Assembly (NCBI GenBank): GCA_012841405.1
Contig: DUUT01000054.1
Span: 6,220-70,219 of the forward strand
Source: Chloroflexota bacterium
GTDB taxonomy: Bacteria; Chloroflexota; Anaerolineae; UBA1429
DNA: 64,000 nucleotides
Direction: 5' to 3'
Shown here: piece after piece, positions 2,342 to 40,903 of the stretch
How the letters are laid out: the number at the start of each line of letters is the position of its first letter
Numbering within the stretch: position 1 is the first letter of the stretch
The notes under the pieces: generated by a model
What the model was told of the DNA's origin: nothing
The model's input: only the letters and a program-made list of their open reading frames with translations
Databases searched by the model: none
Translations under genes and position numbers: made by a program

Positions 2342-3739
2342 CTACCTCATTGCAGTTGCCAGGCGTTTGAGGGCGTCCACCACGGGGCTGACCCAGCCGT
2401 TGCGCTGAAAGAGGGCCTGCCACTCAAAGGCATCGTCATGGCCGCCGCCCGCCTGGTTGGCGAGAATCCAGTAGGTATAGGCGAACGTGTAGGGCTCTGC
2501 CTGGGTCGCCATGTAGCGATAGGCGCCCGATATGAGGTCGACCTGCTTGGCTTCGTCGACCTGCTCGTTCACATAGGTGCCCGCTTCGGTGCCCACAATG
2601 GGGATGATGCGCCCCAACTCGCGCTGCAGGATGTCGGCGTACTGCCGGAAGCGCAGGAACCCGTCGGGGTTGTCCAGCGGCAGGTTCCCGGCATAGTTGT
2701 GCATGCTCAGCCAGCCACGATCGAGCAGCCATTCTTCGCCGCGCTCCTTGAGTCCCCGCAACGCCTGCGTGAGGAAACTGCGGTCGTCCACCTCGCCCTG
2801 CGGGCTGAGCGCCCCGAACCCGGGCAGCCCGCCAGCGGCCACGACGCGCTTGGCGGCGGCGATCCAGACGTCGAGGTAGCGGTTCACGTCCGGGTCGGCA
2901 CCGTCGTTCTCCAGACGGAGATTCGGCTCGTTGTACAGCTGGAAGTAGGAGACGCCGAGCTGCTTGTAGTGGCGTACCAGCGCCTCGAGGTCGCCCATGA
3001 TCGGCGCGAGCCCGGGCGTATAGACGCGCATGACCGGCATGATGCCGCTCTGTACGAGCTTGGACACGAGATAGTCATTGGCGCCGATCTGCGTACCCTC
3101 GTTGAGGATGACCATCCACTTGATGCCCATCTCTTGGGCCTCGCGCACAAAGCGATCGACGACCTCGGGAGTGCTGGACACCGTCGGAATCCAGTGCATT
3201 CCCCAGCCATTGTCAGCGACGGGCCGAGGGTACTCCTCCAGCGCCATCGGCTTACGGCCGGCGATGGGCCCGACGTTGCTCCTGCCCTTGACGGCGCCCA
3301 CCTGCGTCGCGCGCGTGGCGTCGATAGGCGCTGGCGCACTGGCCCCTGTCGAGCCGGTAAGTTGCGCCGGGAGGGGAGTGTCGGGAGGCGGCATGGCTGG
3401 CCTCCCATTGGGCATCACCGGGTCCTCGGGGGCTCTGTCAATGGTCCGTGGTGGAACCCGTACGCGCCCGGCCTGGCGGTACACCTTGGGTACGGCGGCG
3501 GTCCTCAGGTAACGGGTCTGCTGCCACGTCCGCGCTCGCGCGGGAGCCTGCGGTTGAGGCTGTGGCTGAGGGGCACTCTCCGCCGGCTGGGATTCGGCGC
3601 GTTTCCCGTCGAGGAGCAGAGCGAAGGACTGCCCGTTGGGCTGCCCATTTGGCGCGACGGGATGCGGCAGGCGCCCCTCAGTGAGAGAAGCCGGGGACTC
3701 TGCCCGTACCATCGTAATGTCACGCATAGCGTCCGTCAT
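2342..3739 (-). CDS. Clan GH-A (beta/alpha)8 glycoside-hydrolase-like protein with ~165-aa Pro/Gln/Ala-rich disordered N-terminus; first gene of the flgC-fliE-fliF operon
   Basis: 465 aa. The C-terminal 300 aa show the 4/7-superfamily pattern: GMHWIP, IKWMVILNEG, MPVMRVY, YFQLYNEPN (Asn270-Glu271-Pro272 acid/base motif), WLSMHNY, IPIVGTEAG (Glu385, putative nucleophile), YTYWIL. No signal peptide or TM segment. The stop lies 6 nt before the flgC start. Confidence 0.6.
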   Translation of the reverse strand: MTDAMRDITMVRAESPASLTEGRLPHPVAPNGQPNGQSFALLLDGKRAESQPAESAPQPQPQPQAPARARTWQQTRYLRTAAVPKVYRQAGRVRVPPRTIDRAPEDPVMPNGRPAMPPPDTPLPAQLTGSTGASAPAPIDATRATQVGAVKGRSNVGPIAGRKPMALEEYPRPVADNGWGMHWIPTVSSTPEVVDRFVREAQEMGIKWMVILNEGTQIGANDYLVSKLVQSGIMPVMRVYTPGLAPIMGDLEALVRHYKQLGVSYFQLYNEPNLRLENDGADPDVNRYLDVWIAAAKRVVAAGGLPGFGALSPQGEVDDRSFLTQALRGLKERGEEWLLDRGWLSMHNYAGNLPLDNPDGFLRFRQYADILQRELGRIIPIVGTEAGTYVNEQVDEAKQVDLISGAYRYMATQAEPYTFAYTYWILANQAGGGHDDAFEWQALFQRNGWVSPVVDALKRLATAMR

Positions 3740-3876
3740 GCCAGGACCTCACCAGACTGGGGCGTGTGGCGCACTCCACACGCTCGCGAGCCGCTATCGG
3801 TGCCGCGATCAGCGCCGGTCGCAACACCACCAATGGCGCCGTCGCGCCTCGGCAGGGGGCGCCACGTCGCAAGGCC

Positions 3877-3910
3877 ACTATAGCAAAGGGGGGCGGGCAA
3901 AGTCAGTAAA
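3877..3910 (-). promoter_or_regulatory. Putative housekeeping-sigma promoter of the GH-flgC-fliE-fliF operon (TTTACTGACT-N18-TATAGT)
   Basis: The minus strand reads CAACTTTACTGACTTTGCCCGCCCCCCTTTGCTATAGTGG. The -35-like CTGACT and -10 TATAGT are 18 nt apart, in the only AT-rich patch upstream of 3739. It shares the TTTACTGAC core with the flbD promoter at 23589. Confidence 0.45.
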
Positions 3911-3998
3911 GTTGTCGTGAAGTAGCTGTGAAAAGAATGTGAATGCGAGGGATGTAGAAAAAGACAAAAGAGGATATTGAGGGTAAAAGCAGCGAGGC

Positions 3999-4078
3999 GA
4001 GGAGGTGGTCTTCTCGGAGGAGGTCTCTTCTCGAGGGAGCCTTCCTTTCGGAGGCCTCCTCTAGGAGGCCTCCTCCAG
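3999..4078. repeat. Degenerate tandem repeat, five units of 14-18 nt rich in GGAGG (plus strand) / CCTCC (minus strand), spanning the sortase stop codon
   Basis: Units: GAGGAGGTGGTCTTCTCG / GAGGAGGTCTCTTCTCG / AGGGAGCCTTCCTTTCG / GAGGCCTCCTCTAG / GAGGCCTCCTCCAG. The last two contain the self-complementary 10-mer GGAGGCCTCC twice (4050-4059 and 4064-4073) flanking the sortase TAG. Confidence 0.6.
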
Positions 4079-4885
4079 AGGGGCGGGGGCAGCGATGACG
4101 ATGAGCCGGTGCGAGTTATCGCGATAGGGCCAGCAGGTGACCAGTGTGAGGCGTTCATCGATGGTGGGGGCAATCCAGAGGGCATTCTGCGCCCTCTGCT
4201 CCTCCGAAACGTGCTTCTCTGGCACGATAAAGCGCTCGCGCACGAGGTAGCGATAGGTCGTCTCTCCCGCGGCGAGGTACACCTCATCCCCCGGCGCCAC
4301 ATCCACCAGGTAGCGAAAGACCTCACCGCGGATGTTGTGGTGCCCCGCGAGCACGACGTTGGTCCCCTCACCGGGCAGGGCGGATCGCTCCAGCCACCCC
4401 ACGGCGGTGCCGGGATCCTCCCAGAGCACGCTCCCGTCCGCTTCCTCGCGCCAGCCCATCGGTACGACGGTTGCGCGGAGGCCGATGGCCGGGATAGCGA
4501 GCTCGGAGGGGGGCGCCTCGGCCAGCGGGATGGCGGGGGGCGGGGGCGCAATCGTCGGTGAGGGCGTCGCCGTCGGTCTAGGAAGGGGGGTGGCGGTCGT
4601 AAGGTAGGCTAGGGGCCGCGGCGGGAGTTGCTGCGGCGGAACGCCTGGCGGAGGGGCTGCCGTGGCGTCGTGCGCCGGCTGGAGCGCCGGTGTCGTGGGG
4701 CGGTCCTCGACGGCAGCACCCGCCGACGGGAGGTGCTCGGCGGTGGGTATCACCACGGTGATACGATTACAGGCCGTGCACTGGAGCAGGCAGACGGTGG
4801 CCGCCAGGAGCGCCAGACCTCGGCGCGCCCCAGACGGCCACCAGAGATGGGTGTGGGTAGCCATGGGCCGGTCAGAGCGATTCAC
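4061..4885 (-). CDS. Sortase-family transpeptidase (membrane-anchored, Pro-rich linker)
   Basis: 274 aa. N-terminal hydrophobic anchor GLALLAATVCLLQCTAC, then a Pro/Thr/Ala linker. The catalytic domain has NVVLAGHHN (His), the TLVTCWP (TLxTC) Cys motif and a downstream Arg (HRLIVIA). GTG start with GCGAGGT RBS, 36 nt after flaG. Confidence 0.85.
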   Translation of the reverse strand: MNRSDRPMATHTHLWWPSGARRGLALLAATVCLLQCTACNRITVVIPTAEHLPSAGAAVEDRPTTPALQPAHDATAAPPPGVPPQQLPPRPLAYLTTATPLPRPTATPSPTIAPPPPAIPLAEAPPSELAIPAIGLRATVVPMGWREEADGSVLWEDPGTAVGWLERSALPGEGTNVVLAGHHNIRGEVFRYLVDVAPGDEVYLAAGETTYRYLVRERFIVPEKHVSEEQRAQNALWIAPTIDERLTLVTCWPYRDNSHRLIVIAAPAPLEEAS

Positions 4886-4921: not shown

Positions 4922-5305
4922 CTAGAGCCGCGTCTCGATGAGGGAGCCGACCTGCGCATTCCCCTCGTAGAGTAGCTTGAGGATCTCCTCCGGCGGGATC
5001 GTGCGGATGACTTGGCCGGACCGACGATCAATGATGCGCACGCTGACCTGCTTGGTGGTGCGATCAATGACAAACTGGACGTACGCATCGCGAAAGGGGC
5101 CGTTGGGCGGCTCGCGCTCTGCCTCGCCGTCGGGCGTGGCGCCCTCGTCCGAATGCCGCACACGCGCCGGTGGTACCCAGTCCTGTCCGGGCGTGGTGAG
5201 TGGATCAACCGAGTTACTCCCCATGAACCGTGCCCACTCGGCGAGGCGCACGGTGAGCCGGTCGATGGGGGGTAGGTTCTCGATCGCGGAGATCGAGTGT
5301 GGCAT
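4922..5305 (-). CDS. flaG: Flagellar protein FlaG
   Basis: 127 aa. The C-terminal VQFVIDRTTKQVSVRIIDRRSGQVIRTIPPEEILKLL matches the FlaG family signature. GAGGAG RBS. Located next to fliD. Confidence 0.8.
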   Translation of the reverse strand: MPHSISAIENLPPIDRLTVRLAEWARFMGSNSVDPLTTPGQDWVPPARVRHSDEGATPDGEAEREPPNGPFRDAYVQFVIDRTTKQVSVRIIDRRSGQVIRTIPPEEILKLLYEGNAQVGSLIETRL

Positions 5306-5364: not shown

Positions 5365-7518
5365 CTAGCCATAGGTACCTCCCCAGTACATGCGCATTTG
5401 CTGCTGGCTGTAGGTCATCTGGGTGAGTTGAACCAAGAGATGGCTGTACTGCTTTTCGAGGACGGCACGCTGGCTCTCGATGCGCTCTTGGATCTGGGAG
5501 ACGCGGTCATTTACGCCGCGGAGCTGCTCGTTCGTTACCGCTATCTTGCGATTGATCATCCCATCGGCGCCTGTGTAGGGGGAGAGGCGCTTCTCCATGT
5601 TGTCCAGCACGGCGTTCAGGAGCGCCTCAACGCCCGACGGATCGGCAGCCAGGGCAGCATCCAGCGCGTTCGCATCGAGCACCGGTACCAGGTTGGCGTC
5701 CAACGTGATCCCGATCTGACGGAGACTGGTGGGCGCTCCTGCAGGCAGGCCGCTGATGGTCTCGGAGAGCGTCATGTAGAGCGATGTGCGCAGGGCGGTG
5801 AACAGCGTGTTATCGCCCGCGAGGGCATTGCGCGTGTAGGTGGCATTGGCACCCGAACCCGAGGCGGTCACCCCCGTCTCGTTCTTGATCAGCGACTGAA
5901 AGGCGGTAAAGGCATCCAAGAGCGTGCTGATCTTGTCGGCGATGGAGCCGGTGTCGCGCTCCACCGTCAGGATGGCGCTCTGCCCTTCAGCATCGGCGGC
6001 CAGGTTGATCGTCATGCCCGTCACGACGTCGGACAGGCCGGTGTTGCGGTCGCGGGTGACGGTGATGCCGTTCACCGTAAAGACCGCATCGGTCGCGTCC
6101 TGGTAGCCGCTACCAGGGCCTGTATTCTTGAACGTGTTGGGTGCCGAGATGAGGCCAATGCCGTTGGCGCCCGTGCCGCTGAGCACCGTGCCTTGCACAT
6201 CGGCGAGCTGGATGGTATGCGCCGCGCCGGTGGACTTGGCCGTCAGCACCAGGCGATTGGTGACGATACTGGCACTGACGCCCGCACCGTCGGGATAGCT
6301 CGCCGTGTTGATGGCGTTGGCAATGTCGATCAGGCTGTCGCCCGAGGAGACGGTGATCAGTGCGCCGCCGCTGGTGTACGAGACGCTGGCAGCGCCGGCC
6401 CCGATGGTGCCAACTTGGGTCAGGCGCGCGGTATAGTCGACCTGCGCCGCCCCGGCTCCCATGGTGCCCTCCACGTAGGGGCCCTCGCCGAAATCGATGC
6501 TGATGCCTCGCCCGGTGACAAAGACACCATTGGCGTCGTTGGCCAAGACAGCATCGATGGCCTGCCAACCAGCGGTAAAGCTGCCATCAGCCGCCGCGGC
6601 GTCATAGATCGACACCGCCGTGCCCGTCGCGTCAACGAGCCGGAACTGCCACTCGCCGCTCCCGGCGCCGTTCTCGCGGGTCTCGACATAGTAGCGGCCG
6701 CTGGCGAGCTCGGCCTGGCCAGAGCGCACCGCGCTGGTGGTGATGGCCTCCACCGTATCCGGCATCGTGACCACGTCGGCCACCGCGTGGTCCGACAGGG
6801 GGGCAAAGGTGATCGTGAGGCCTCGCCCCGTATCGAACGTCGTGCCGGCCACGGTGCTCAAGTCCTGCCAGTCCGACGTCATGGCGGTGCCCGCGTCGCC
6901 GGCAACGTCCACCGAGACGGCGACGCCGTGCTCGTCGACGATCCGGAACTGGAGGGTGTTGTGATGGTCGCGGATCTCGACGTGGTAGCTCCCGTGACTG
7001 AGCTCGGTCTGCCCGGAGCGCACGGCCGCGGTGCCAAAGGCGCTTACCGTGTTCAGCACAGGGGACGCGTCGCTGACGGCACGCGCGCCCGTTCCGCCGA
7101 TGACAAAGGTGCCCTCGAGGCCCAGTGCTGCGGTGGCGGATACCTGCGCGTCCGAGGCGGCACGCTGTGCCCGCGCCAAGCTCGTGACCGAGATGGTGTA
7201 GGCCCCTGCAACGGCGCTGCGGGTGGCGCTGGCCGTCACGATGGTGCCACCCGCCACACTGTGGCCGCCCACCGACACCTTGTTGGCAGTCCACACCGAA
7301 CCGGCGCTGCTGCGCAGGTCGGCGATAGCCGAGGTCAGATCGGTGAGCTTGCTGTTTAGCCTCGTGTACGCCTGCACGAGCGCGTTCAGCGTGGTGCGCT
7401 GGCTGGCGAGCTGGTCCAGGGGCTTGGACTGAGTCGTCAGCGCGGCATCAATGATCTGACGGAAGAACTGCCGATAGGTTTCGTTCACCCCAGCGATCGT
7501 GTTTGCGGTAAGTGCCAT
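5365..7518 (-). CDS. fliD: Flagellar filament cap protein FliD (enlarged, with internal tandem domain duplication)
   Basis: 717 aa. N-terminal ...SKPLDQLASQRTTLNALVQAYTRLNSKLTDLTSAIADLRS and C-terminal ...NEQLRGVNDRVSQIQERIESQRAVLEKQYSHLLVQLTQMTYSQQQM coiled-coil ends are typical of FliD. Confidence 0.9.
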   Translation of the reverse strand: MALTANTIAGVNETYRQFFRQIIDAALTTQSKPLDQLASQRTTLNALVQAYTRLNSKLTDLTSAIADLRSSAGSVWTANKVSVGGHSVAGGTIVTASATRSAVAGAYTISVTSLARAQRAASDAQVSATAALGLEGTFVIGGTGARAVSDASPVLNTVSAFGTAAVRSGQTELSHGSYHVEIRDHHNTLQFRIVDEHGVAVSVDVAGDAGTAMTSDWQDLSTVAGTTFDTGRGLTITFAPLSDHAVADVVTMPDTVEAITTSAVRSGQAELASGRYYVETRENGAGSGEWQFRLVDATGTAVSIYDAAAADGSFTAGWQAIDAVLANDANGVFVTGRGISIDFGEGPYVEGTMGAGAAQVDYTARLTQVGTIGAGAASVSYTSGGALITVSSGDSLIDIANAINTASYPDGAGVSASIVTNRLVLTAKSTGAAHTIQLADVQGTVLSGTGANGIGLISAPNTFKNTGPGSGYQDATDAVFTVNGITVTRDRNTGLSDVVTGMTINLAADAEGQSAILTVERDTGSIADKISTLLDAFTAFQSLIKNETGVTASGSGANATYTRNALAGDNTLFTALRTSLYMTLSETISGLPAGAPTSLRQIGITLDANLVPVLDANALDAALAADPSGVEALLNAVLDNMEKRLSPYTGADGMINRKIAVTNEQLRGVNDRVSQIQERIESQRAVLEKQYSHLLVQLTQMTYSQQQMRMYWGGTYG

Positions 7519-7544: not shown

Positions 7545-7904
7545 TCAGACGACGGCGGTGATGCTCTCCATGGTTCTCGAGCGCTCCGTAGCGGTGGCTA
7601 CCGCGTCCGAGTTCTTGGCCGCTTCGGCCCAGGCATCGCGCAGTTCCTGAAGCACACGGGCCGCGTCGCTAAAGCGCTGCTGACGGCCCAGCTCGCCACA
7701 CCACTGGTAGAGGGCGGCAAACTGAGACGCTACCGGATAGGTGAAATCCAGTGCTTCCATCAGCACGCTCAGCCCACGGGTCAAGTCCTCGAGGCGACGG
7801 TTTTCGCAGGCCCGCAGCGTGTAATCGTACACCGTCAGCAGGCGCGAGAGGGGGCTGGAGCTGATAGCCTGGTTCGTCTGGTAGACGCTGGCGACGGATG
7901 GCAT
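7545..7904 (-). CDS. fliS: Flagellin-specific export chaperone FliS
   Basis: 119 aa. YQTNQAISSSPLSRLLTVYDYTLRACE...LMEALDFTYPVASQFAALYQWC fits the FliS four-helix pattern. AGGAG RBS. Immediately downstream of fliC. Confidence 0.9.
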   Translation of the reverse strand: MPSVASVYQTNQAISSSPLSRLLTVYDYTLRACENRRLEDLTRGLSVLMEALDFTYPVASQFAALYQWCGELGRQQRFSDAARVLQELRDAWAEAAKNSDAVATATERSRTMESITAVV

Positions 7905-7987: not shown

Positions 7988-8902
7988 CTAGCGGAACAGA
8001 CCGAGGATAGCTTGCGGGGCCATGTTGGCCTGGCTCAGCATGGCGATGGCGGTCTGCTGGAGGATCTGGTACTTGGTGGCCTCGAGCTGCTCAAAGGCCA
8101 TGTCGGCGTTCATGATTCGGTTCCAGGATGCCTCGGTGTTCACCTTGGCGACGCTGAGCGAGGCCTCCTGGTAGTCGAGGCGGTTGACGATTGCGCCGAT
8201 GTAGCTCAAGCCCTCGGACACCTTGAGGCTGGCCGCGTCGACCTTGGTCATGAACTCGTTAGCGGATGCCTGGCTGGCCACCGACCACTGGCTCGCGCCG
8301 GTGCCGATCTGGACCTTGAGGTAGGCCGCGTTGAAGCAGGCCTTGCCTCCCGTGCTCGTCGAGCCAAAGACCTGGTCGGCGATCTGGAACGACATCTTGT
8401 CAGCGGTGCCGGTGCCGACACCCACCTGGAAGTTAAACTTGCCAACAGTGGTGGTGCTTGCAAAGGTCGAGGTGCTGCCGACCAGCAGGTTCACGCCCGC
8501 CCACTGCGCTTGGAGTACCTCGTTGTCGATCTGCGTGCAGAGCTGCTTCAGCTCGTTCGAGATCGCCGTGCGCTCATCCACACCGAGGGTGTCGTTGGCC
8601 GCCTGGGTGGCCTTGGTCTTCATCTTGGTGAGGATGTCGTTGATGTTGTTCAGGTGCCCCTCGGCGACGGTGATGAGTGACTTGGCGTCGGCGATGTTGG
8701 CCAGCACCTGACCGAGGCCCTTGACCTTAAAGTCGAACTTGGTGGCGATGGTCAGGCCAGCGGCATCATCGGCGGCCGAGTTGATGCGCTTGCCGGTGGA
8801 GAGGCGCAGCTGGGCGACGCCGAGCTTGTTGTTGATGCTCTGCAGCGAGTTGAGGGACTGCAGCGCGGCGATGTTGGTGGCGATGCGTGTGAAATCGGCC
8901 AT
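7988..8902 (-). CDS. fliC: Flagellin
   Basis: 304 aa. N-terminal IATNIAALQSLNSLQSINNKLGVAQLRLSTGKRINSAADDAAGLTIA and C-terminal EQLEATKYQILQQTAIAMLSQANMAPQAILGLFR are canonical D0/D1 segments. The central part is short and Ser/Thr/Gly-rich. Confidence 0.95.
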   Translation of the reverse strand: MADFTRIATNIAALQSLNSLQSINNKLGVAQLRLSTGKRINSAADDAAGLTIATKFDFKVKGLGQVLANIADAKSLITVAEGHLNNINDILTKMKTKATQAANDTLGVDERTAISNELKQLCTQIDNEVLQAQWAGVNLLVGSTSTFASTTTVGKFNFQVGVGTGTADKMSFQIADQVFGSTSTGGKACFNAAYLKVQIGTGASQWSVASQASANEFMTKVDAASLKVSEGLSYIGAIVNRLDYQEASLSVAKVNTEASWNRIMNADMAFEQLEATKYQILQQTAIAMLSQANMAPQAILGLFR

Positions 8903-8908
8903 GGTGAT

Positions 8909-8946
8909 TACCTCCGTGCAATCGTGGTGGGGGTATCCTTACCCCC
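8909..8946 (-). promoter_or_regulatory. Putative CsrA binding sites in the fliC 5' leader: GGA-loop hairpin plus Shine-Dalgarno site
   Basis: The minus-strand mRNA reads GGGGGUA-AGGA-UACCCCC (8929-8946), a 7-bp stem with AGGA in the tetraloop. It is followed by CACGGAGGUAAUCACC-AUG, where GGAGG (8911-8915) is the SD. csrA and fliW are encoded in the same regulon (40904-41628). Confidence 0.55.
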
Positions 8947-9054: not shown

Positions 9055-9082
9055 TTATCGGCTCGGAGCAACGCGCCTAGAG
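9055..9082 (-). promoter_or_regulatory. Sigma-28 (FliA)-type promoter of fliC: CTCTAG-N14-GCCGATAA
   Basis: The minus strand reads CTCTAG GCGCGTTGCTCCGA GCCGATAA. The -10 is an exact match to the FliA/SigD consensus GCCGATAA. The same architecture recurs at 37331, 23400 and 15991. Predicts a leader of about 150 nt. Confidence 0.6.
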
Positions 9083-9159: not shown

Positions 9160-10863
9160 CTATGTCGAGATGGTCGGCTGCTCGACAAACCGTTGGAGGG
9201 CGGCGACGTTCTCTCGGACGAGGGCATCGTGCGGCGCTGCGGCTAACACACAGCGATACCCCTCCAGGGCGGCCGCATACTGCTGCAGGTGTGCATAGCA
9301 GGTCGCCAGGTCTGCGAGGGCATCCATGTCCGTAGGGTTGCCGTGCAGATACTCCTCGAGGTGGGCGATGGCGTCATCGAACGCGCCGCGCCCGGCGCAG
9401 GATCTCGCCGCGAGGAGGGCGGGCGCCCCTGGGGACGCGTCACCGGCTTCTCCCAGCACCTTCCAGCGGAACGCCGGGGCATCGGCGTGTGGCGCCTTTG
9501 GGTGTTCCCCGGCCTCGGGTGCGGCGGCCAGCGACGCGTCCACCGCTTCCGCTGCGGGCGCCTGCGCGGGCGCGCAGCGACGCGCCTGGGCATCGGCCTC
9601 CTCAGCCTCGACGAGCCGGTCCTGGGACCGGTAGAGGTCTGCCAAGTACTGCCATACCCTGCGGTTCGCCGCCCCACAGGCGATGGCCCTCTGGAGCACC
9701 GTCTCGGCCGGTACGAGCGATCCGGCGCGGCCGTAGCACATGGCCAGGTTCGCATAAGCGTCCCCATCCTGGGGAGAGTGCTCAATGGCGCGTTGGAAGG
9801 CGTCGATCGCCTTGTCTCGCTGGCCGAGGCGGTCGTAGCAGCCGCCCAAGTGATTCCACGCCATCCCCTCCGAGCTATAGTGGTCATACACCAGCTCGGT
9901 GGGCTTGGGGTTCCGTGTCTCCTCGCGCTTGAGTATCAAGAAGCGTTTGAACTGGCTGATGGCGGCTTCGGTCTTGTCCTCCTGCGCAAAGTACAGGAGG
10001 GCCAACTCGATATTCAGGTCGAGGCTCTCGGGGATGCGTTCAAGCTCTGCGAGGAGCACCTCTTCGCCCTGGGCGTAGCGTCCCAGGGCACGGCAGCTGA
10101 TGGCCACGTCGCAGGCTACGCCATGGCGGTGCAGGCGCTGCGTGTTGGGGCGGCCGAGCACCCACAGGCCCCGCTCGATGACCTCCTCGTGGCGCTCCGT
10201 GTTGCGGTACACGCGTATGAGGTTCATCCAGGCAAAGGTGTTCTCCGGGTCCTCGGCGAGCTGTTGTTGGAGCAGCTCTCCGGTGCGCTTCCACTTGCGC
10301 TCCAGATCCTCCCGGGAGAGGTTGTAGCCATAGTGCCACAGGCGCACCTCGGTGACGAGATGTTTGCCCTCGTAGACGAGTTGGTTGTGGACGATGCCCT
10401 CAAAGTGCGCCTTGCCCCGGCGAAAAAGCCGCGGAAAGTAGTGTTTGGCCAGCCGCCCGCCGGGGAGCGTGCTGAGCAGCGGCACGCCGAGGGCATGGAC
10501 GTCGGGCGAGGCATGAGCCCGGCGCACCGTCTCGAGGAGCAACTCCTGATCCTCATGCTCCAGCTCTTCATCGGCGTCGATCTGCAGGATCCAATCGCCG
10601 GTGGCGTAACGCAGCGAGTGGTTGCGCGCCTCGCTGAACGAGTTGTTCCAGGCGTGAAAGAACACCCGATCGGTGTAGCGACGGGCGATGTCAACGGTGG
10701 CATCCGTCGAGCCCGTATCGACGATGATGATCTCGTCGGCCACGTCCTGGACACTCTCGAGGCACTGCGCCAAAAAGCGCTCCTCGTTCTTGACGATCAT
10801 GCAGACAGACAGGCGTGGGGCGGGATCCTGGGGCGCGTTCGCTACGGGATTGACCATGTTCAC
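9160..10863 (-). CDS. Family-2 (GT-A) glycosyltransferase fused to C-terminal TPR repeats; candidate flagellin glycosyltransferase
   Basis: 567 aa. N-terminal LSVCMIVKNEERFLAQCLESVQDVADEIIIVDTGSTDATVDIA...ILQIDADEEL (GT2 DxD-type motifs). The C-terminal half has repeated TPR-like A..Y..LG....A...Y..A periodicity. Adjacent to the fliC promoter. Its start overlaps the wecB stop. Confidence 0.8.
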   Translation of the reverse strand: MNMVNPVANAPQDPAPRLSVCMIVKNEERFLAQCLESVQDVADEIIIVDTGSTDATVDIARRYTDRVFFHAWNNSFSEARNHSLRYATGDWILQIDADEELEHEDQELLLETVRRAHASPDVHALGVPLLSTLPGGRLAKHYFPRLFRRGKAHFEGIVHNQLVYEGKHLVTEVRLWHYGYNLSREDLERKWKRTGELLQQQLAEDPENTFAWMNLIRVYRNTERHEEVIERGLWVLGRPNTQRLHRHGVACDVAISCRALGRYAQGEEVLLAELERIPESLDLNIELALLYFAQEDKTEAAISQFKRFLILKREETRNPKPTELVYDHYSSEGMAWNHLGGCYDRLGQRDKAIDAFQRAIEHSPQDGDAYANLAMCYGRAGSLVPAETVLQRAIACGAANRRVWQYLADLYRSQDRLVEAEEADAQARRCAPAQAPAAEAVDASLAAAPEAGEHPKAPHADAPAFRWKVLGEAGDASPGAPALLAARSCAGRGAFDDAIAHLEEYLHGNPTDMDALADLATCYAHLQQYAAALEGYRCVLAAAPHDALVRENVAALQRFVEQPTIST

Positions 10864-12053
10864 CTCACAGGGTTCAGACGCCTCTCGAACGGTGCGGCCA
10901 AGGGAGTGGTGGAGAGCCCAAAGCGGCTGGCGATGGCCTGGGCGATGCGCTCGCCAGCGTGACCATCACCGAACGGGTTGGGCGCAGAGGCCATGCGTCG
11001 GTAGCTCTCCGCGTCGGTAAGCAGGCGCTCGGCCTCGCGGACGATGCGCTCTGCGTCGGTGCCGACGAGCAGCGCTGCTCCCGCTTGGACGGCTTCGGGG
11101 CGTTCAGTGGTATCGCGCAATACGAGCACGGGCACATTCAAGGAGGGGGCTTCCTCCTGGATGCCGCCGGAATCCGTCAGGATCAGGTGCGACCGCCGCA
11201 TCGTGTGGGCAAAGGCGACATAATCGAGCGGCTCGACGAGGCGGATGTTGTCCCGCCCCGACAGCAGGCCAAAGACGGTCTCGCGTACGCGCGGATTGAG
11301 GTGCACGGGGAGGAGAAAGGTATCCTCCGGGTGTGCGTCGGCCAGACGAGACACCGCGTCGCAGATGCGGTGGAGGGGGGTGCCCAAGCTCTCACGGCGG
11401 TGCGTCGTGACGAGGATGAGCCGACCCGAGAGCCCCTGCAGCGGGGCATCAACGGGTGCCCAGGGGCGACTGACCACGTCGAGGAGGGCGTCGATCACCG
11501 TGTTCCCCGTCACGGTGATGCCGTCGGGTGCCACCCCCTCGCGCAGGAGGTTCTGGCGAGCGGCCTCGGTGGGTGCAAAGTGCATCGCGGCGATCGCGCC
11601 GGTGAGGCGACGGTTCATCTCTTCGGGGAACGGGTTGAGCGGATCGCCGGTTCGCAGCCCTGCCTCGACGTGGCCAACGGGCACGCGCCGGTAAAAGGCC
11701 GCCAGGGAGCCCGCGAATGCTGTGGTGGTATCGCCCTGCACGAGGACGACGTCCGGCTTTTCCGCCTCGATGACCTGCGACACACCCTCGAGCACCCGCG
11801 CCGTGAGGAGCTCCAGGCTCTGGCGCGGCTGCATGACGTCGAGGTCGTATTGCGGGACGATGTCAAACGTCGCGAGTACCTGATCGAGCATCTGCCGGTG
11901 CTGGGCGCTCACGCACACGGTGGTGGTCAACTGGGGCAGCGCGCGCAACGCGCGGATCACCGGTGCCAACTTGACGGCTTCGGGGCGCGTGCCCAAGACG
12001 ACGAGGACGCGCGCGCCAGCGGGCCGATGTCTGCAATCCGTTGACGGTGCCAT
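10860..12053 (-). CDS. wecB: UDP-N-acetylglucosamine 2-epimerase (non-hydrolysing)
   Basis: VLVVLGTRPEAVKLAPVI...VCVSAQHRQMLDQVL..F.I.P.YDLDVMQP.QSL..LTARVLEGV...KPDVVLVQGDTTT...AAFY..VPVGHVEAGLRT...PFPEE.NR are classic WecB/MnaA motifs. I trimmed the 475-aa ORF to the ATG at 12053 (MAPSTDC...), because the upstream part is low complexity and overlaps the preceding gene. Confidence 0.9.
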   Translation of the reverse strand: MAPSTDCRHRPAGARVLVVLGTRPEAVKLAPVIRALRALPQLTTTVCVSAQHRQMLDQVLATFDIVPQYDLDVMQPRQSLELLTARVLEGVSQVIEAEKPDVVLVQGDTTTAFAGSLAAFYRRVPVGHVEAGLRTGDPLNPFPEEMNRRLTGAIAAMHFAPTEAARQNLLREGVAPDGITVTGNTVIDALLDVVSRPWAPVDAPLQGLSGRLILVTTHRRESLGTPLHRICDAVSRLADAHPEDTFLLPVHLNPRVRETVFGLLSGRDNIRLVEPLDYVAFAHTMRRSHLILTDSGGIQEEAPSLNVPVLVLRDTTERPEAVQAGAALLVGTDAERIVREAERLLTDAESYRRMASAPNPFGDGHAGERIAQAIASRFGLSTTPLAAPFERRLNPVR

Positions 12054-12081
12054 AGGTCTCTTCACGCAGCCTTTCTCCGCC

Positions 12082-14751
12082 TCATGAGCCGTCAACCAAC
12101 ACTGTAGCGGCAACGACACCCGCCGGCTCGCTGATGGCGCCCATGGGAGCACCGGGCGTGCCATCGCCGGCCAGGTACGCGCTTCCAGGACTGGCGGGTA
12201 GCGCAGGGGCTCCAGGGAGGCTCGCCGCCAACGCCAGGAGCTCTTGCAGTCGGTGTCGATAGGTGTGCCCCTGCAGGATGGCGGCATGCCCGCGTCGGGC
12301 GATCGCCTCCCGCTCGGCGTCGTGGGCGAGGTAGTAGGCTACGGCCTCGTGCAGAGCAGCGATGTCGCCAGTTGGAACGCTGACATAGTGCTCACCCTCT
12401 CGCAGCAGGTGGGGCGATGACAGCGCCTCGGTGATCAAGAAAGCGCCGGCGCCGAGCACCTCGGCGATGCGCGTCTCGGTATTGGGCAGATCGGAGAGGT
12501 GCAGATTGAGAACGATCTTGGACTCGTTGTAGAGCGCGTTGAGGGCGCGAGGGTTCCAGACGTTTGCCCGGTGCAATCGACAGCGCTGCGCGAGGGCATC
12601 GAGGATCTGCGCGCGGCGTGGCGTAACCGTGCCGACAAAGGTGACGTCGTAGCGCTTGGGGAGATCGAGCACGCCATGCACCGCGGGGTCGACGGCGGCC
12701 GTTGACAGCCACGCGACGCGCTGGGCGCCCAGGCGACGATAGACCTCGAGGTTGCCCTCATCATGGGATAGGACCAAATCAAAGGCGCCGATGTTGAACG
12801 CCAGCTCGTGGCGTCGCTCCATGGCGGCCGCATCGGCGGCGTCAGGAGTCCCGAGCTGCTCGGCATACCACAAGACAGTCGGGCAGGGGGCTGCACGGAT
12901 GATGCGCGGGTCGATCCCCTCGCCGCGACACACTAGCACGAGGCTGGCCGGCTGTTGGATGCGCTCGGCCAGATCATGCCGGTGCTGGCGATAGTCGGTG
13001 CTGATCACCCTGTAACCGAGCGCCTCTAGTGGAGCGATGAGGCGATTCTCAAAACCCCATGGGTAGTTGGCCTCCTGGGCGCCCACGAGGTGCACGGTGG
13101 GCTGCGGAGGAGAGTCTGACGCGACGACCGTGGCCGTGGGACGATCTCGGCGCGACACGGCGGGCGGTGCATCTTGGATCACCCGGTGGAGCACCCGACC
13201 GAGCTGCCGACGCAGCGTATCGATGGACAGCTGCTCCTCCGCAAAGCGCCGCGCGTTGGCCCCCATGGCGGCGATTCGATCCGGGGCGCTCGCGAGGGCG
13301 CGCATCTTGTCGGCGAGATCGTGCGTGCTGACGATCGTCTCGGGGAAGGCAATGTTGTCCGCGCGGGTAACGGTGCGCTCCACGTCCACCAGGAGGCCGT
13401 TGTAGCCCTCGATCACGAACTCGTTCATCGGTGGGGCGTTCGTGGCGATGGCGGGCAGGCCGCAGGCGAGGCCCTCGGGCAGTGGAAGCCCCAGGCCCTC
13501 GAGCTTGGACGGGAACACGAGGATGCGACCGCGGTGATACAGCCCGGGCGCCGGCTCGGTGCCCACGTGGTAGGTGATGCGGGGGTGGCGAGCGACGATG
13601 GCGGCGCTCTCGGGAGGCAGCTTGTCCGTGCCTACCTGCGCGTGCACGAGAAGCGTCACCTCGGGCAGGTCTTTGGAGACCATATCAAAGGCGGTGATGA
13701 CGGCGGGCGTCATCTTGCGGTAGCCGATGCCCAGCCAGCCCGCGTTGTGGAAAAAGGTGTGCGTCGCGGCGCGCGGGTCGGCAGGGGCAAAGAGTGCGGT
13801 GTCCACCGCCCAGCCGATGTAAAACGCCTGGCAGTGGGAACGGACGAGATTGTAGGTGCGCAGGGTGGAGCAGAGCACCCCGTCATAGAGGCGCATAAGG
13901 GGCGTCCACTCGTCCCTGTAATAGTCGAGATAGGTGAGGACACGCACTCCTGTGGACTTGGCCGCCACCACGAGGTTCCAGTCATACTCCTCGTTAAAGA
14001 CGACGGCGTCGAGGCGGTTCTCGTGGATCCAGCGCACGAGGACATCGCACGGAATCTCATAGTCGGGAAAGGTGTGGAGGTTGGGCACGTGCCAAAAGCC
14101 GGCGGTTTCGAGCATCGAACGGCCATAGACGCCGCCGGTACGGGCAAAGACAAAGGTCTCGTGGTCCTGCGCCAGGGCGTCGCGCAGCATCTTGGTGACG
14201 TATGCCTGGCCGCGTTCGAACCAGATGGAGACGAACCCGACACGGAGGCGCCGGGTATGGCGCGTGGCGTGCGCTTCGGCGCGCGGCACGACGGCATCGA
14301 GACGCTCTCTGGCGCGGGCGTTGGCCGGTTCACGCCGGAGACAGACTCGGTACGCCAGCTCGGCTTCGATCGCCTCATCGAGGCTGTCCAACGTCCTGGC
14401 CAACCCGTACCACGCCTGGGAATAGTCCACGTCGAGTGCCACGGCGCGGCGGTAGCACTCCTCCGCCTGGGTATAGTGCCCCTGTGCATAGTGGAGCACA
14501 CCGAGATTGTTCCAGATGCTGGCATCGTCCGGCACGAGGGCGGCGGTGCGCTCAAAAGAGGCGATGGCCTCGGGCACCTCCCCGCGCGCGTGGTGCAGGA
14601 GGCCCAACTCGTAATGCGGGCCAGGCTGGTCGGGGTAAGTACTGGCGGCGTGGCGGTAGGCGGCGATCGCCTCGGAGTGGCGTCCCTCAGCCGCCAGTGC
14701 GGCGGCGTGGGCCATCATCCCGTCGTACGCGATTCGAGTGCTATCGGCCAT
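12082..14751 (-). CDS. Three-module protein: N-terminal TPR repeats, central GT-B (GT4-like) glycosyltransferase, C-terminal CgeB/DUF3880-like glycosyltransferase-type domain
   Basis: 889 aa. TPR region: AIAAYRHAASTYPDQPGPHYELGLLHHARGEVPEAIASFERTAAL.P.D...WNNLGVLHYAQG. GT4-type core: RILVFPSKLEGLGLPLPEGLACGLPAIATNAPPMNEFVIEGYNGLLV. The C-terminal ...YDVTFVGT..PRRAQILDAL......H.ANVWN...LNALYNESKIVLNLH.........R.AEVLGAGAFLITE resembles CgeB-family proteins. Confidence 0.7.
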   Translation of the reverse strand: MADSTRIAYDGMMAHAAALAAEGRHSEAIAAYRHAASTYPDQPGPHYELGLLHHARGEVPEAIASFERTAALVPDDASIWNNLGVLHYAQGHYTQAEECYRRAVALDVDYSQAWYGLARTLDSLDEAIEAELAYRVCLRREPANARARERLDAVVPRAEAHATRHTRRLRVGFVSIWFERGQAYVTKMLRDALAQDHETFVFARTGGVYGRSMLETAGFWHVPNLHTFPDYEIPCDVLVRWIHENRLDAVVFNEEYDWNLVVAAKSTGVRVLTYLDYYRDEWTPLMRLYDGVLCSTLRTYNLVRSHCQAFYIGWAVDTALFAPADPRAATHTFFHNAGWLGIGYRKMTPAVITAFDMVSKDLPEVTLLVHAQVGTDKLPPESAAIVARHPRITYHVGTEPAPGLYHRGRILVFPSKLEGLGLPLPEGLACGLPAIATNAPPMNEFVIEGYNGLLVDVERTVTRADNIAFPETIVSTHDLADKMRALASAPDRIAAMGANARRFAEEQLSIDTLRRQLGRVLHRVIQDAPPAVSRRDRPTATVVASDSPPQPTVHLVGAQEANYPWGFENRLIAPLEALGYRVISTDYRQHRHDLAERIQQPASLVLVCRGEGIDPRIIRAAPCPTVLWYAEQLGTPDAADAAAMERRHELAFNIGAFDLVLSHDEGNLEVYRRLGAQRVAWLSTAAVDPAVHGVLDLPKRYDVTFVGTVTPRRAQILDALAQRCRLHRANVWNPRALNALYNESKIVLNLHLSDLPNTETRIAEVLGAGAFLITEALSSPHLLREGEHYVSVPTGDIAALHEAVAYYLAHDAEREAIARRGHAAILQGHTYRHRLQELLALAASLPGAPALPASPGSAYLAGDGTPGAPMGAISEPAGVVAATVLVDGS

Positions 14752-14809
14752 GCAAGCTCACTCTCCGTGGGGCTCACCGTGGAATGCGGCAGCCGGCGGT
14801 CATAGCGTC

Positions 14810-15907
14810 TCAATCGAGGGTCAGGCTGGTACGCCGGTACTGAGGCGTCACCGCCTGCAGGGCGCGGGTCACTGTGGGTTGGTCGGGCACCAGCGCAAGG
14901 GATTCCTCCCAAAGCTGTCGGGCGCGGCCAGTATCGCCCGCAGCGTGGCAGCAGTCGGCCAGCGCGTTCAGTGTGTGCACCTTGGGCCCCGGATCGGGCG
15001 TCTCGGCCCAGCGCCTGCGGCGCTCCTCGATGGCGCAGTGTTGGTTGAGCGCCTCCTCGAGCATGGCGATGGCCAGCTCGAGATCGCCCCGGTCGCGGTA
15101 GAGCTCGCCGAGCTCGTGCCACGCCTCGGCATAGTCGGGGCGTAGCTTGATCGCCCGTGACAGGAATGCCTCGGCCTCTTGTGACAGGCCGCACGCCCGG
15201 GAGCACACGCCCAGGCGGAAGTAGCCCTCCTCGTGCTGATCATCGGCGAGCACCACGTTGCGAAAGTGGGCCAGCGCTTCGCGATGACGGTCCTGCATCT
15301 CGAGGATGAGGCCCAGCCCCAGGTTCAGGGAGACGTCATCGGGGTGGTGCGCCAGGGCGCCACGCAGCACCTCACCCGCCTGGCGCAGGTCGCCCTGTTC
15401 GAGGTGAATCCGTGAGAGGGCGGCGGCACTCCCCAGGTCATCGGGCCGCAGCCTGACGGCCTCGGAGTAGAGGACGATGGCATCCTTCACGCGGCCCAGG
15501 CGCAGCGCACTCTCGGCCATCTGGCCATACACCGCGGCGTCTTCGGGGCAGGCCAAGACGACTTCCTTGTAGCAGGAGAGCGCCTTGTCGTGTTCTCCGA
15601 GCCGCTGATAGACCGCGGCAAGGTTGTAGTAGACATCGACGTCGTCGGGCAAGAGTCGCGCTGCGCGGAGGAGGTGCTGTTGGGCCTCCTGGAGGCGCCC
15701 TTGGTGGACCAAACAGACGCCGAGATGCGCCAATCCCTCGCCCCAGCGTGGGTCGTCGTCCAAGGCGCGCTGGAGCAGCGTCGCGGCTTCCATCCAGTTC
15801 TCGGCCAACAGGGCATCCTCCGCCTGGCGGCGTACGTCAAGGAGAGGAGTTGCGAGCGCTCCATCTGCGGGCGCAAGAGGCTCTGCCTGCTTATCACTGC
15901 TTGGCAT
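14810..15907 (-). CDS. TPR repeat protein (first gene of the TPR/glycosyltransferase operon)
   Basis: 365 aa made almost entirely of 34-residue repeats: WGEGLAHLGVCLVHQGRLQEAQQHLLRAARLLPDD, VYYNLAAVYQRLGEHDKALSCYKEVVLACPED, and so on. Confidence 0.8.
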   Translation of the reverse strand: MPSSDKQAEPLAPADGALATPLLDVRRQAEDALLAENWMEAATLLQRALDDDPRWGEGLAHLGVCLVHQGRLQEAQQHLLRAARLLPDDVDVYYNLAAVYQRLGEHDKALSCYKEVVLACPEDAAVYGQMAESALRLGRVKDAIVLYSEAVRLRPDDLGSAAALSRIHLEQGDLRQAGEVLRGALAHHPDDVSLNLGLGLILEMQDRHREALAHFRNVVLADDQHEEGYFRLGVCSRACGLSQEAEAFLSRAIKLRPDYAEAWHELGELYRDRGDLELAIAMLEEALNQHCAIEERRRRWAETPDPGPKVHTLNALADCCHAAGDTGRARQLWEESLALVPDQPTVTRALQAVTPQYRRTSLTLD

Positions 15908-33598: not shown

Positions 33599-34003
33599 AT
33601 GAGTACCATCCCATCCGAACCCATCGATGTAACCAGCGAGATGGAGACGTTCTGCCACTGGGGGATTCGCGTCGCATGGTACCTGTCGCTGTTGTGGGGT
33701 GGCCTGGTGTTGCTCCTGTCGTGGACGGGGGGCGCCGCAGCGGCGATAGCGGTAATCCGTGGGCTTGTCGCGTTCCTGGCGATCGGGCTCGTGGGTTGGG
33801 GCGTGAATGCCGTGATGGTGCACGCCGGCGCCCAAGACGCGCAAACCACGAGCGCGTCGGCGGACGCGATGGAGGGCTCGGAGACGCAGGAAACGGGCCC
33901 GGCGGACGAGGCGGCGCTTGCCGGTGTGGAAACGGAGGCGAACCGGGGCGATACGGCAACGATGGAGACCGACGCGGGCGCGCCTGCCGACGCGACCTCG
34001 TAA
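33599..34003 (+). CDS. Small hypothetical membrane protein with acidic C-terminal tail (occupies the usual flhF/flhG position)
   Basis: 134 aa. GAAGGAG RBS. Predicted TM helices (VAWYLSLLWGGLVLLLSW, AAAIAVIRGLVAFLAIGLVGWGVNAVMV), then an Ala/Glu/Asp/Thr-rich tail. No family recognised. Confidence 0.6.
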   Translation: MSTIPSEPIDVTSEMETFCHWGIRVAWYLSLLWGGLVLLLSWTGGAAAAIAVIRGLVAFLAIGLVGWGVNAVMVHAGAQDAQTTSASADAMEGSETQETGPADEAALAGVETEANRGDTATMETDAGAPADATS

Positions 34004-34048
34004 GAGTTGGGGCTAGAGTACGGGATAGACGCCTGGGGGGCGAGGCCA

Positions 34049-34873
34049 ATGGACGCGACAACTTCAAAGATGGATACAAAACAGATCTGGGAGCGGTATG
34101 ACGAGACGCGCGACCCGGAGCTTCGTCAGGAGATCATCACCCGGAATATGCACCTCGTGCGCTACGCGGTAGAGCGCCTGGGATTCGGTGTCTCTTACCT
34201 GGATCGCGAGGACCTGATCAGCGAGGGGATCATCGGCCTCATCGACGCCGTCGATCGCTTTGATCCCAAGCGGGGGATCCAGTTCGTCACCTATGCCACC
34301 ATCCGCATTCGGGGGCAGATCCTAGACGCCCTGCGCACGCGCGACCTCTTGCCGCGGTCGGCTCGTCGCCGGGTGAAGGGCATGCAGGAGGCGGTTCAGA
34401 CGCTCGTAGCGACACTAGGGGAGCCGCCCACCGAGGAGCAACTGGCTGAGTACATGAACGTCAGCGCTGAGCAGCTGCAGCAGACGCTGTGCGACGCCAG
34501 CCTCGAGATCTGCTCGCTGGATGCTCCCCTCGTCGAGGACGGGGAGACGTTCTCGCTGCAGAATCTCATCGAGGCATCGGAAGAGTTCGAGCCAGCCGAA
34601 CAGCAGGCCCGTGCCGAGCTGCACGAGGAGATGCGCCTGGCCATACGCAAGCTCCCCGAGCGGCAGCAGTTGCTCCTGTCGCTGTACTACGTGGAAGAGC
34701 TGACCATGCGCGAGATTGGCGAGGTGCTGTCGGTCTCCGAGTCGCGGGTGAGCCAGCTCCATGCTCAGGCGGTCACGAACCTGCGTGCTCTGCTCGAGAC
34801 TGCGGGCTATATCGAGAGGCCGCTCGTGCACGCGGCGCCAGCGCCCCTGGCCATGATGGCGGGGACTGCCTGA
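34049..34873 (+). CDS. fliA: Flagellar sigma factor FliA (sigma-28 / SigD)
   Basis: Region 2: DLISEGIIGLIDAVDRFDPKRGIQFVTYATIRIRGQILDALR. Region 4: LPERQQLLLSLYYVEELTMREIGEVLSVSESRVSQLHAQAV. About 270 aa, with no region 1 or region 3 expansion. The start could be 34049 or 34070. Confidence 0.9.
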   Translation: MDATTSKMDTKQIWERYDETRDPELRQEIITRNMHLVRYAVERLGFGVSYLDREDLISEGIIGLIDAVDRFDPKRGIQFVTYATIRIRGQILDALRTRDLLPRSARRRVKGMQEAVQTLVATLGEPPTEEQLAEYMNVSAEQLQQTLCDASLEICSLDAPLVEDGETFSLQNLIEASEEFEPAEQQARAELHEEMRLAIRKLPERQQLLLSLYYVEELTMREIGEVLSVSESRVSQLHAQAVTNLRALLETAGYIERPLVHAAPAPLAMMAGTA

Positions 34874-37450: not shown

Positions 37451-37744
37451 ATGAGGATTGACGGCAGAACGGATCCAATCTACAGGATTACGCAAAAACT
37501 CTGTACGCCAGGCGGCAGGGATTCGGCGCGAGGAGACACCCCGGCGCTGCAGAGTAGCGACCAGGTGACACTCTCGTCGCGGGCCCAAGCGATCAGGCGC
37601 ATGTACCAGGCGCTCACAAGCGTACCGACCGAGCGCGCCGAGCGCATCGCGGCGCTGCGCGAGGCGGTACAAAGCGGCAGCTACGAGATCCCCGAGGATG
37701 CGTTGGCCGCACGCCTGATAGGCGTCATCTATCCGGAAAGGTAA
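37451..37744 (+). CDS. flgM: Anti-sigma-28 factor FlgM
   Basis: 97 aa. C-terminal ...ERAERIAALREAVQSGSYEIPEDALAARLI matches the FlgM sigma-28-binding region. AAGGAG RBS. Confidence 0.8.
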   Translation: MRIDGRTDPIYRITQKLCTPGGRDSARGDTPALQSSDQVTLSSRAQAIRRMYQALTSVPTERAERIAALREAVQSGSYEIPEDALAARLIGVIYPER

Positions 37745-37747
37745 GGT

Positions 37748-40879: not shown

Positions 40880-40903
40880 GCACGAGTGGAGGAGACTGCG
40901 CGG

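Follow-up and report, generated by a model that had tools for sequence, protein, structure and literature searches.

A sortase gene at the end of the flagellin operon and an LPXTG protein gene beside flgF in an Anaerolineae flagellar cluster

A 64-kb stretch of contig DUUT01000054.1 from a Chloroflexota bacterium (65% G+C; hereafter the window) was analysed and found to be a flagellar and chemotaxis supercluster, with its closest relatives among metagenome-assembled genomes (MAGs) labelled Anaerolineae, phylum Chloroflexota. Two of its genes are considered here: srt, a sortase gene that closes the late operon opened by the flagellin gene fliC, and a gene between fliA and flgF for a protein with an LPXTG sorting signal, the candidate substrate of that sortase. 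The features used in the argument are given below with their coordinates in the window, their strand and, in brackets, the basis for each call.

9055-9082, (-) strand: sigma-28 (FliA)-type promoter of the flagellin operon, made up of CTCTAG (9077-9082), N14 and GCCGATAA (9055-9062)
7988-8902, (-) strand: fliC, flagellin, opens the late operon (Pfam Flagellin_N and Flagellin_C)
7545-7904, (-) strand: fliS, flagellin chaperone (Pfam FliS)
5365-7518, (-) strand: fliD, filament cap (Pfam FliD_N, FliD_C and Flagellin_IN)
4922-5305, (-) strand: flaG (Pfam FlaG, E 1.8e-11)
4061-4885, (-) strand: srt, sortase, closes the late operon (Pfam, fold model, synteny)
3867-3951, (-) strand: boundary element of TTCAC(A/G) repeats and a sigma-70-like promoter at 3877-3906 (promoter scan, alignment)
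2342-3739, (-) strand: p465, uncharacterised 465-aa protein, heads the flgC-fliE-fliF operon (gene order in relatives)
34007-34873, (+) strand: fliA, sigma-28, directly 5' of the LPXTG gene (translation, syntenic relatives)
34939-35706, (+) strand: LPXTG protein gene, candidate substrate (sorting signal, conserved context)
35703-36458, (+) strand: flgF, rod, translationally coupled to the LPXTG gene (sequence, counterparts in relatives)

The fliA counterpart in two syntenic loci (L095 and L097) carried Sigma70_r2, Sigma70_r3 and Sigma70_r4 domains and was 84% identical, and the flgF counterparts in relatives carried LlgE_F_G_D1 and Flg_bbr_C domains.

That srt encodes a sortase (MEROPS C60) is beyond reasonable doubt. 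Its open reading frame (ORF; 274 aa, GTG start, GAGG 8 nt upstream) matched Pfam Sortase PF04203 at 90.6 bits (cut-off 26.6; E 8e-26) over profile positions 1-124 of 125. The catalytic motifs LAGHHN (His182/183, nt 4334-4351), TLVTCWP (Cys251, nt 4127-4147) and SHRLIV (Arg260) were all present, and H182, C251 and R260 were invariant in an alignment of 77 homologues. The AlphaFold2 (AF2) model had a predicted local distance difference test (pLDDT) score above 90 over residues 125-268, and more than 50 solved sortases were matched by it in Foldseek at probability 1.00 (best E 1e-10), in keeping with the eight-stranded beta-barrel of sortases. The protein begins with a lipobox-like signal/anchor (residues 21-39, ending in CTAC), followed by a Pro/Ala/Thr-rich stalk of about 85 residues (41-125) and the catalytic domain (125-268). 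It appears to be an intact and active member of a Chloroflexota-specific lineage, and LPXTG transpeptidation is its predicted activity.

Assignment of the enzyme to one of classes A-F by profile hidden Markov models (HMMs) had been proposed in the earlier note; when this was done a sortase family was reached and a named class was not. The only NCBIfam model passed was the generic sortase_fam TIGR01076 (48.8 vs. a cut-off of 39.35), and the score stayed below the cut-off of every named class A-F and GN in the NCBIfam subfamily models, as for E (55.5, cut-off 160), C (53.9, 160), F (44.7, 166), D (44.4, 165) and GN (35.8, 158). Assignment to class C, D or E was tried and dropped, as these were not told apart by the NCBIfam models, a PDB sequence search or the fold search. 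Class E (SrtE of Streptomyces, Actinoplanes and Thermobifida) gave the best class model score and was among the top fold matches, and its hosts are, like the window's host, high-GC monoderms; however, the score was one third of the cut-off, the operon context here is flagellar, and the substrates of the window's family carry LPxTG instead of the LAxTG typical of class E. Class C structures are the nearest solved relatives, but the class C hallmarks of a DPW/DPY-type lid before the barrel and a C-terminal membrane helix were not found in the window's protein, which ends 6-7 residues past the last strand. Pilin genes are absent from its vicinity, and there was no sign of polymerisation.

The gene follows flaG closely. 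From the flaG stop codon (4922-4924) to the srt start the spacer is exactly 36 nt and holds a GAGG Shine-Dalgarno, being otherwise empty: no promoter- or terminator-like site was found in it by a scan for sigma-70 and sigma-28 consensus, and it folded no better than shuffled sequences (z = 0.09). Compared with the sigma-28 consensus (TAAA/CTAAAG, N14-15, GCCGATAA), the promoter of the flagellin operon has an exact -10 and a partial -35. Exact copies of GCCGATAA occur three times in the 64 kb, and GCCGATAC, with one mismatch to it, lies at 37351, 93 nt before flgM. Out of 15 related loci, 12 have the pattern C-T-x-A/T-A-G, N14-15, (G/T)CCGATAA at 150-250 nt 5' of their first fliC, several of them with a textbook CTAAAG-N14-GCCGATAA. 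Given this consensus match and its conservation across loci, FliA dependence of the late operon is well supported as a prediction. Co-transcription of srt with fliC through flaG is predicted from spacing and consensus and, as the last gene of a FliA-type operon, srt would therefore be made when the late flagellar genes switch on.

On its other side srt is separated from p465 by 321 nt of lower G+C that contain the boundary element. Its promoter reads CTGACT, 18 nt, TATAGT, with TG before the -10, and a block of 85-95 nt was nearly invariant among four relatives with diverged flanks. A putative independent promoter for p465-flgC-fliE therefore lies after the sortase gene and not before it. Three TTCAC(A/G) repeats sit 5' of the extended -10 promoter (TGcTATAGT), and the repeat block is likely to be a binding site for a regulator of the early flagellar operon. 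No terminator was found on the minus strand near srt by consensus scan, and both srt spacers folded no better than shuffles.

A structured RNA around srt was looked for in Rfam and rejected, the only match being a spurious miRNA (E 0.45). A 12-nt direct repeat, GAGGAGGCCTCC, is present in two copies 2 nt apart across the sortase stop codon (4050-4078, (-) strand). Each copy contains the palindrome GGAGGCCTCC, and the pair could form a 10-bp hairpin; no T-run follows it, and it was absent from relatives in the alignment of the srt-p465 spacer.

The order fliC...flaG/fliS-srt was recovered in about 25 loci from diverse Anaerolineae, with sortases down to 43% identical to that of the window. Close relatives (L001/L015, L013 and L014) keep flaG-srt-p465-flgC-fliE. 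Of the 80 loci retrieved by a p465 query, those with a sortase gene adjoining the late operon are L015, L016, L017, L021, L040, L050, L058, L064, L083, L084, L086 and L094; srt closes the late operon in L013, L014, L181, L183 and L184 too, L183 having the window's own order. The downstream neighbour is not fixed: fliC-fliD-srt is on the strand opposite to p465 in L083, and in L181 and L184 the genes that come after fliC-fliS-fliD-flaG-(small ORF)-srt are convergent and non-flagellar, and srt is not beside p465. In relatives the gap upstream of srt is 9-80 nt (9 nt in L013; in L050 the start codon overlaps the upstream ORF), and that downstream, to p465 or another next gene, is 123-321 nt. An independent scan of metagenomes, with a profile built from these sortases, placed 9 of the 80 nearest relatives, including the top 4, in a flagellar context. 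The gene stays last although fliS stands before or after fliD and flagellin copies vary from 1 to 3; given that both gene order and downstream neighbour differ, the linkage is to the late operon itself. The earlier note had described srt as terminal in the flagellin late operon, starting 36 nt past flaG, the space between them being free of promoter-like and terminator-like elements, and as downstream of a sigma-28-type promoter at 9055-9082. Each point was borne out, and the same srt gene was recovered from homologous flagellar loci, where that note had suggested looking for it.

A six-frame search of the 64 kb for LPxTG with a hydrophobic stretch and then a basic tail behind it returned a single ORF, 34939-35706, with LPVTG at nt 35557-35571; this agrees with the earlier note, which had named it as the only LPXTG substrate in the window, and changes only its start. 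The true start is probably GTG 34948, because the Shine-Dalgarno abuts the ATG at 34939. The encoded protein consists of a signal peptide (cleavage ASA|NG), an RskA_C-like beta-sandwich (residues 40-155, predicted at pLDDT 75-93), a disordered Pro/Gly/Ala stalk (157-205), LPVTG, a hydrophobic helix and a basic tail, the sorting-signal stretch reading RLPVTGGTSTPLALVLAVMSMASLGLVVAGERKCR. The match to Pfam Gram_pos_anchor fell short of the cut-off (17.8 bits vs. 20; E 0.0033). The stop codon of the gene overlaps the flgF start in ATGA (35703-35706).

Close orthologues keep both the motif and the slot between fliA and flgF, and the L, P, T and G of the motif were invariant in 12 diverse family members. 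In other Chloroflexota this slot is taken by more distant homologues (25-34% identical), with the following motifs.

Anaerolineae (L098, L099): LPITG, LPVTG
Chloroflexia chromosome (L101): LPDTG
Dehalococcoidia (L109, L116, L126, L127): LPNTG
Another Chloroflexota MAG (L111): LPYTG

Regions between fliA and flgF were also collected by means of FlhA; the collection was mostly Firmicutes, with 11 usable Chloroflexota loci. Of the 10 Chloroflexota loci that were informative (Anaerolineae, Chloroflexia and Dehalococcoidia), 9 have an LPXTG gene between fliA and flgF, the exception being L100; so do all five metagenomic context loci, where it overlaps flgF by 4-8 nt. No homologue was found within 8 kb in about 65 FlhA-fetched loci of Firmicutes, Actinomycetota and others. 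A word-indexed search for the family gave 15 and then 22 matches, swamped by low-complexity words from the stalk, and an exhaustive profile search of cluster representatives was used instead, yielding 241 clusters at E up to 1e-10. LPxTG with an anchor was present in at least 96 of the best 150 representatives; the rest were mostly fragments or had longer tails, and a minority had a plain membrane anchor. Even if the sortase is a housekeeping enzyme, the LPXTG flagellar-cluster protein adds to the flagellar genes of Chloroflexota a member that had gone unannotated. As a conserved flagellar-cluster gene in three Chloroflexota classes, it reaches further than the flagellar-operon protein of one locus that had first been described.

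Three of 12 family members matched RskA_C (PF10099; best E 7e-13), and precomputed RskA_C matches exist for P0130, P0137, P0139 and P0140. The window's protein gave no RskA_C match at E up to 0.01, and its domain is, judged by family membership, probably a divergent RskA_C domain. No solved structure was related to it by sequence, and the fold search returned only weak Cu,Zn-SOD-like Ig-sandwiches (E 5e-3), so that no function was inferred from the fold.

The slot between fliA and flgF also holds small genes. In several Chloroflexota an ORF of 129-163 aa lies between fliA and the LPXTG gene (L177, 1595-2086; L179, 2582-2971; L180, 4751-5221). L100, which has no LPXTG gene, has a small helix-turn-helix (HTH)-like ORF in the same slot (8226-8627). 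The window has instead a gene for a 134-aa membrane protein (33599-34003) ahead of fliA.

Taking the two genes together, we lean, on balance and without great confidence, towards a coupling of enzyme, substrate and flagellum in which the late-operon sortase anchors the LPVTG protein. The protein encoded between fliA and flgF is the most probable substrate; we infer the pairing, its exclusivity and the role of the anchored protein from gene content and context. No LPxTG-like sorting signal was found in FliC, FliD, FlaG, FliS, p465, FlgF/G/K/L/M/N, MotB, FliL or FliO, and pilin-like polymerisation of flagellar proteins was dismissed because the late and rod proteins lack such signals. The sortase and the LPXTG gene co-occur in JAXGNH01 (L001, L096), in JAANWY01 (L050, L099) and on a 98.5-kb contig (P0002, P0125). 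Non-flagellar members of the sortase family, too, often have one or two LPXTG proteins encoded no more than a few kb away (L192, 6988-8757; L203, 5521-6537; L260, 1402-3419; L264, 4286-7930; L010, 8176-9645), for example in the genes downstream of srt-DUF6391-holA, and substrate-linked placement is therefore a habit of the family.

The N-terminal signal sets the flagellar-operon sortases apart. A lipoprotein-type x-x-[GAS]-C closes the N-terminal hydrophobic segment in 23 of 23 of them vs. 2 of 23 non-flagellar sortases, the remaining non-flagellar relatives having a plain membrane helix or an extra LysM domain. Endings among the flagellar-operon sortases include LVSC, LAGC and LTAC, and that of the window is CTAC (4763-4825, (-) strand, residues 21-41), an atypical lipobox. 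Lipobox, conserved position and the LPXTG neighbours of the family are candidate signs which suggest that the flagellar-operon sortases form a distinct flagellum-linked subtype. In a neighbour-joining tree they fell into four deep groups and the others into one clade; the split was not relied upon because its bootstrap was 0.35.

A number of observations weigh against such a coupling. The sortase and its candidate substrate are encoded about 30 kb apart in separate transcription units, the substrate among the middle genes (fliA-flgF-flgG) and the sortase among the late ones, and their timing is not obviously matched. An intrinsic terminator after srt was not found by consensus scan or folding. 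The LPXTG family has a far wider distribution than the flagellar-operon sortase. Most members of the sortase family are in non-flagellar contexts, notably lgt-srt-DUF6391-holA. Many flagellated Chloroflexota (L031, L033, L037, L039, L049 and the Dehalococcoidia loci) have the p465 cluster or the LPXTG gene but no late-operon sortase gene in the fetched part of the flagellar cluster, so that in these a sortase encoded elsewhere must suffice. The weak bootstrap of the flagellar split belongs here too, as does the fact that no second sortase was seen in genomes with a flagellar one; that search was not exhaustive, and the flagellar enzyme may be the sole sortase, serving all substrates.

The best surviving rival explanation is built from several of these points, namely that the enzyme is the housekeeping, possibly the sole, cell-wall sortase, that it anchors all LPXTG proteins, and that its address in the flagellin operon is inherited gene order. 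This we consider possible but rather unlikely. In its favour, the family is widespread in Anaerolineae in housekeeping-like contexts (lgt-srt-DUF6391-holA and 22 of 80 metagenomic loci), the sortase fits no substrate-specialised class in the curated HMMs, no second sortase was seen, in a search that was not exhaustive, in genomes that carry the flagellar one (JAXGNH01 gave only one locus with motifs common to both types), flagellated relatives cope without a late-operon sortase, and tree support for a separate flagellar subtype is weak. Against this stands the persistence of srt in last place among sortases 43-64% identical, while late-gene order, flagellin copies and downstream neighbour vary. 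A sigma-28 promoter with an upstream gap of 9-80 nt would confine a housekeeping enzyme to motile cells, the lipobox is common to the flagellar-operon sortases and missing from the others, and the single protein with a sorting signal in 64 kb is a conserved flagellar-cluster gene. An lgt-DUF6391-holA site without a sortase was also looked for, which gave no matches in the window or in the flagellar loci and is uninformative on relocation of a housekeeping gene.

It is improbable that srt is adjacent to the late operon without being co-transcribed with it, whether from an unrecognised promoter inside flaG or fliD or by being read with the p465-flgC operon. The promoter scans covered sigma-70 and sigma-28 consensus only, Chloroflexota promoters are poorly known, and no clear terminator lies 3' of srt, all of which leave room for such an arrangement. 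However, the flaG-srt spacer holds a Shine-Dalgarno alone, the srt start overlaps the upstream ORF in L050 and follows it by 9 nt in L013, the conserved promoter block is downstream of srt and not upstream, and srt is away from p465 in L083, L181 and L184.

A regulatory or processing switch, in which the sortase, made after completion of the hook-basal body, would cleave the membrane-held RskA_C-like protein and its relocation would signal or lock a late assembly step, has some appeal (kinship of the domain with the extracytoplasmic domain of RskA, as 3 of 12 members match PF10099; an LPXTG gene directly 3' of the sigma factor gene fliA; a late enzyme with an earlier substrate, as suits a checkpoint; an unusually long and conserved cytoplasmic tail of about 20 residues in the close clade) but is very improbable. 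The LPXTG protein lacks an anti-sigma domain on its cytoplasmic side, the cluster has a canonical FlgM and FlgN close by (37451-38266, from Pfam matches of the syntenic genes), in some family members a plain membrane anchor stands in place of the LPxTG signal, and no experiment hints at such a switch.

If the late-operon sortase does anchor the LPVTG protein, the following sequence of steps may be proposed. Sec would export the LPXTG protein alongside FlgF and FlgG of the rod, and its C-terminal helix would keep the protein in the membrane. The sortase, lipid-anchored on a long Pro-rich stalk and made from the FliA-dependent flagellin transcript, would cut between Thr and Gly and pass the protein to lipid II and thence to peptidoglycan. 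Because the enzyme would come from a FliA-dependent transcript, anchoring would follow completion of the hook-basal body, and the anchored beta-sandwich, on its stalk of 50 residues, may act at or near the flagellar base. Export, retention, cleavage and transfer are based on sequence features and established sortase biology; the timing and the role at the base are what we infer. The outcome, in a monoderm phylum, would be an accessory joined covalently to the wall at the base of the flagellum or close to it.

Chloroflexota flagellar clusters have been described as lacking flgH and flgI (PMC10284905). Neither gene was seen in the flagellar contexts of the relatives examined. Given this absence, a putative wall-fixed support or scaffold for the rod or the stators is an attractive reading. 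A fuller version is offered tentatively, as something that may well prove wrong: in monoderm Chloroflexota an LPXTG beta-sandwich made with the distal rod proteins, and in many Anaerolineae installed by a late-operon lipoprotein sortase under the gate of the FliA checkpoint, would take over from the absent P and L rings, as a bushing, a collar or a scaffold for the stators.

Parts of this arrangement resemble known systems. In its working it comes closest to the specialised, substrate-linked sortases. Class C sortases of pilus islands, SrtB of the isd locus and class D sporulation sortases are likewise encoded inside the gene cluster of a single surface structure, with which they are probably co-regulated, and the His-Cys-Arg set and the sortase beta-barrel are common to them and the window's enzyme. 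The class D sporulation sortases are expressed under a developmental sigma factor. Unlike the pilus, haem-uptake and spore sortases, the structure here is a flagellum, the candidate substrate is encoded 30 kb away in another operon, and the enzyme has a lipoprotein-type signal.

Flagellar parts fixed in or to the wall are also familiar, as the P and L rings (FlgI, FlgH), the peptidoglycan-binding domain of MotB and the disks of Vibrio and Campylobacter, and, as with envelope-embedded flagellar accessories, the LPXTG gene is encoded with rod genes (it overlaps flgF). Unlike those accessories, the LPXTG protein has no sequence or fold relation to them, is modelled as a small Ig-like sandwich, and would be attached covalently by a sortase. 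RskA, the mycobacterial anti-sigma-K factor, has an extracytoplasmic domain distantly related to the LPXTG protein, and in both cases the gene directly follows a sigma factor gene. Unlike RskA, the LPXTG protein lacks a cytoplasmic anti-sigma domain and its topology is reversed, with a cleaved N-terminal signal and a C-terminal sorting signal.

To our knowledge, sortases have been associated with pili, haem uptake, spores and general surface display, and not with flagella. A search of open-access full texts found no paper that places a sortase or LPXTG protein among clustered flagellar genes, which is not proof of absence, and to that extent upholds the view of the earlier note that a coupling of wall anchoring to flagellar assembly is undescribed. 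Sortase and LPXTG both go unmentioned in the most detailed survey of flagellar genes in this phylum (PMC10284905). What appears to be new is that a sortase is tied into the flagellar regulon and that flagellar clusters across the phylum encode an LPXTG protein, the enzymology being familiar. We know of no settled account of how monoderm bacteria, with a thick wall and no P and L rings, support the rotating rod where it crosses that wall. Two candidates for such support are provided here, the LPXTG protein coupled to flgF in three Chloroflexota classes and the late-operon sortase of many Anaerolineae, and both suggest a flagellar part bound covalently to the wall. The idea is testable in cultured motile Chloroflexota such as Tepidiforma, whose LPNTG homologue occupies the slot between fliA and flgF.

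The remaining features concern genes on either side of the late operon.

9160-10863, (-) strand: GT2-TPR glycosyltransferase, upstream of fliC
1877-2335, (-) strand: flgC
1392-1706, (-) strand: fliE

The order p465-flgC-fliE was found in more than 40 Chloroflexota loci, and p465 is the usual, though not obligatory, downstream neighbour of srt. It occupies the slot ahead of flgC-fliE-fliF where flgB usually sits. No Pfam match was obtained at E up to 1, and no PDB profile match was better than E 0.95. Flagellar copies have no Sec signal, and the non-flagellar homologues L059, L077 and L065 have a signal or lipobox. The conserved C-terminal domain contains NEP and GTE(G/A)G motifs and looks by eye like a clan GH-A glycosidase; that p465 is a glycoside hydrolase is a guess from these motifs, and by analogy with FlgJ it could be a putative type-III-exported wall hydrolase.

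Upstream of fliC, 9160-15907 (-) comprises the GT2-TPR glycosyltransferase, a UDP-GlcNAc-2-epimerase-like gene, an 889-aa TPR/glycosyltransferase and a TPR protein, and this group is probably a flagellin glycosylation island. The position of the GT2-TPR gene upstream of fliC is kept in L001, L013, L183 and L184.

CsrA/FliW control of flagellin translation is known in Bacillus subtilis. In the window fliW (40886-41341) and csrA (41335-41628) form a pair on the (+) strand inside the cluster. The 5' untranslated region (UTR) of fliC, with a leader of about 150 nt, has a hairpin, GGGGGU-AAGGAU-ACCCCC, with GGA in its loop (8911-8946, (-) strand), and a second GGA lies within CACGGAGG, over the Shine-Dalgarno. 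The GGA sites of the leader together with the fliW-csrA pair look like control of this kind.

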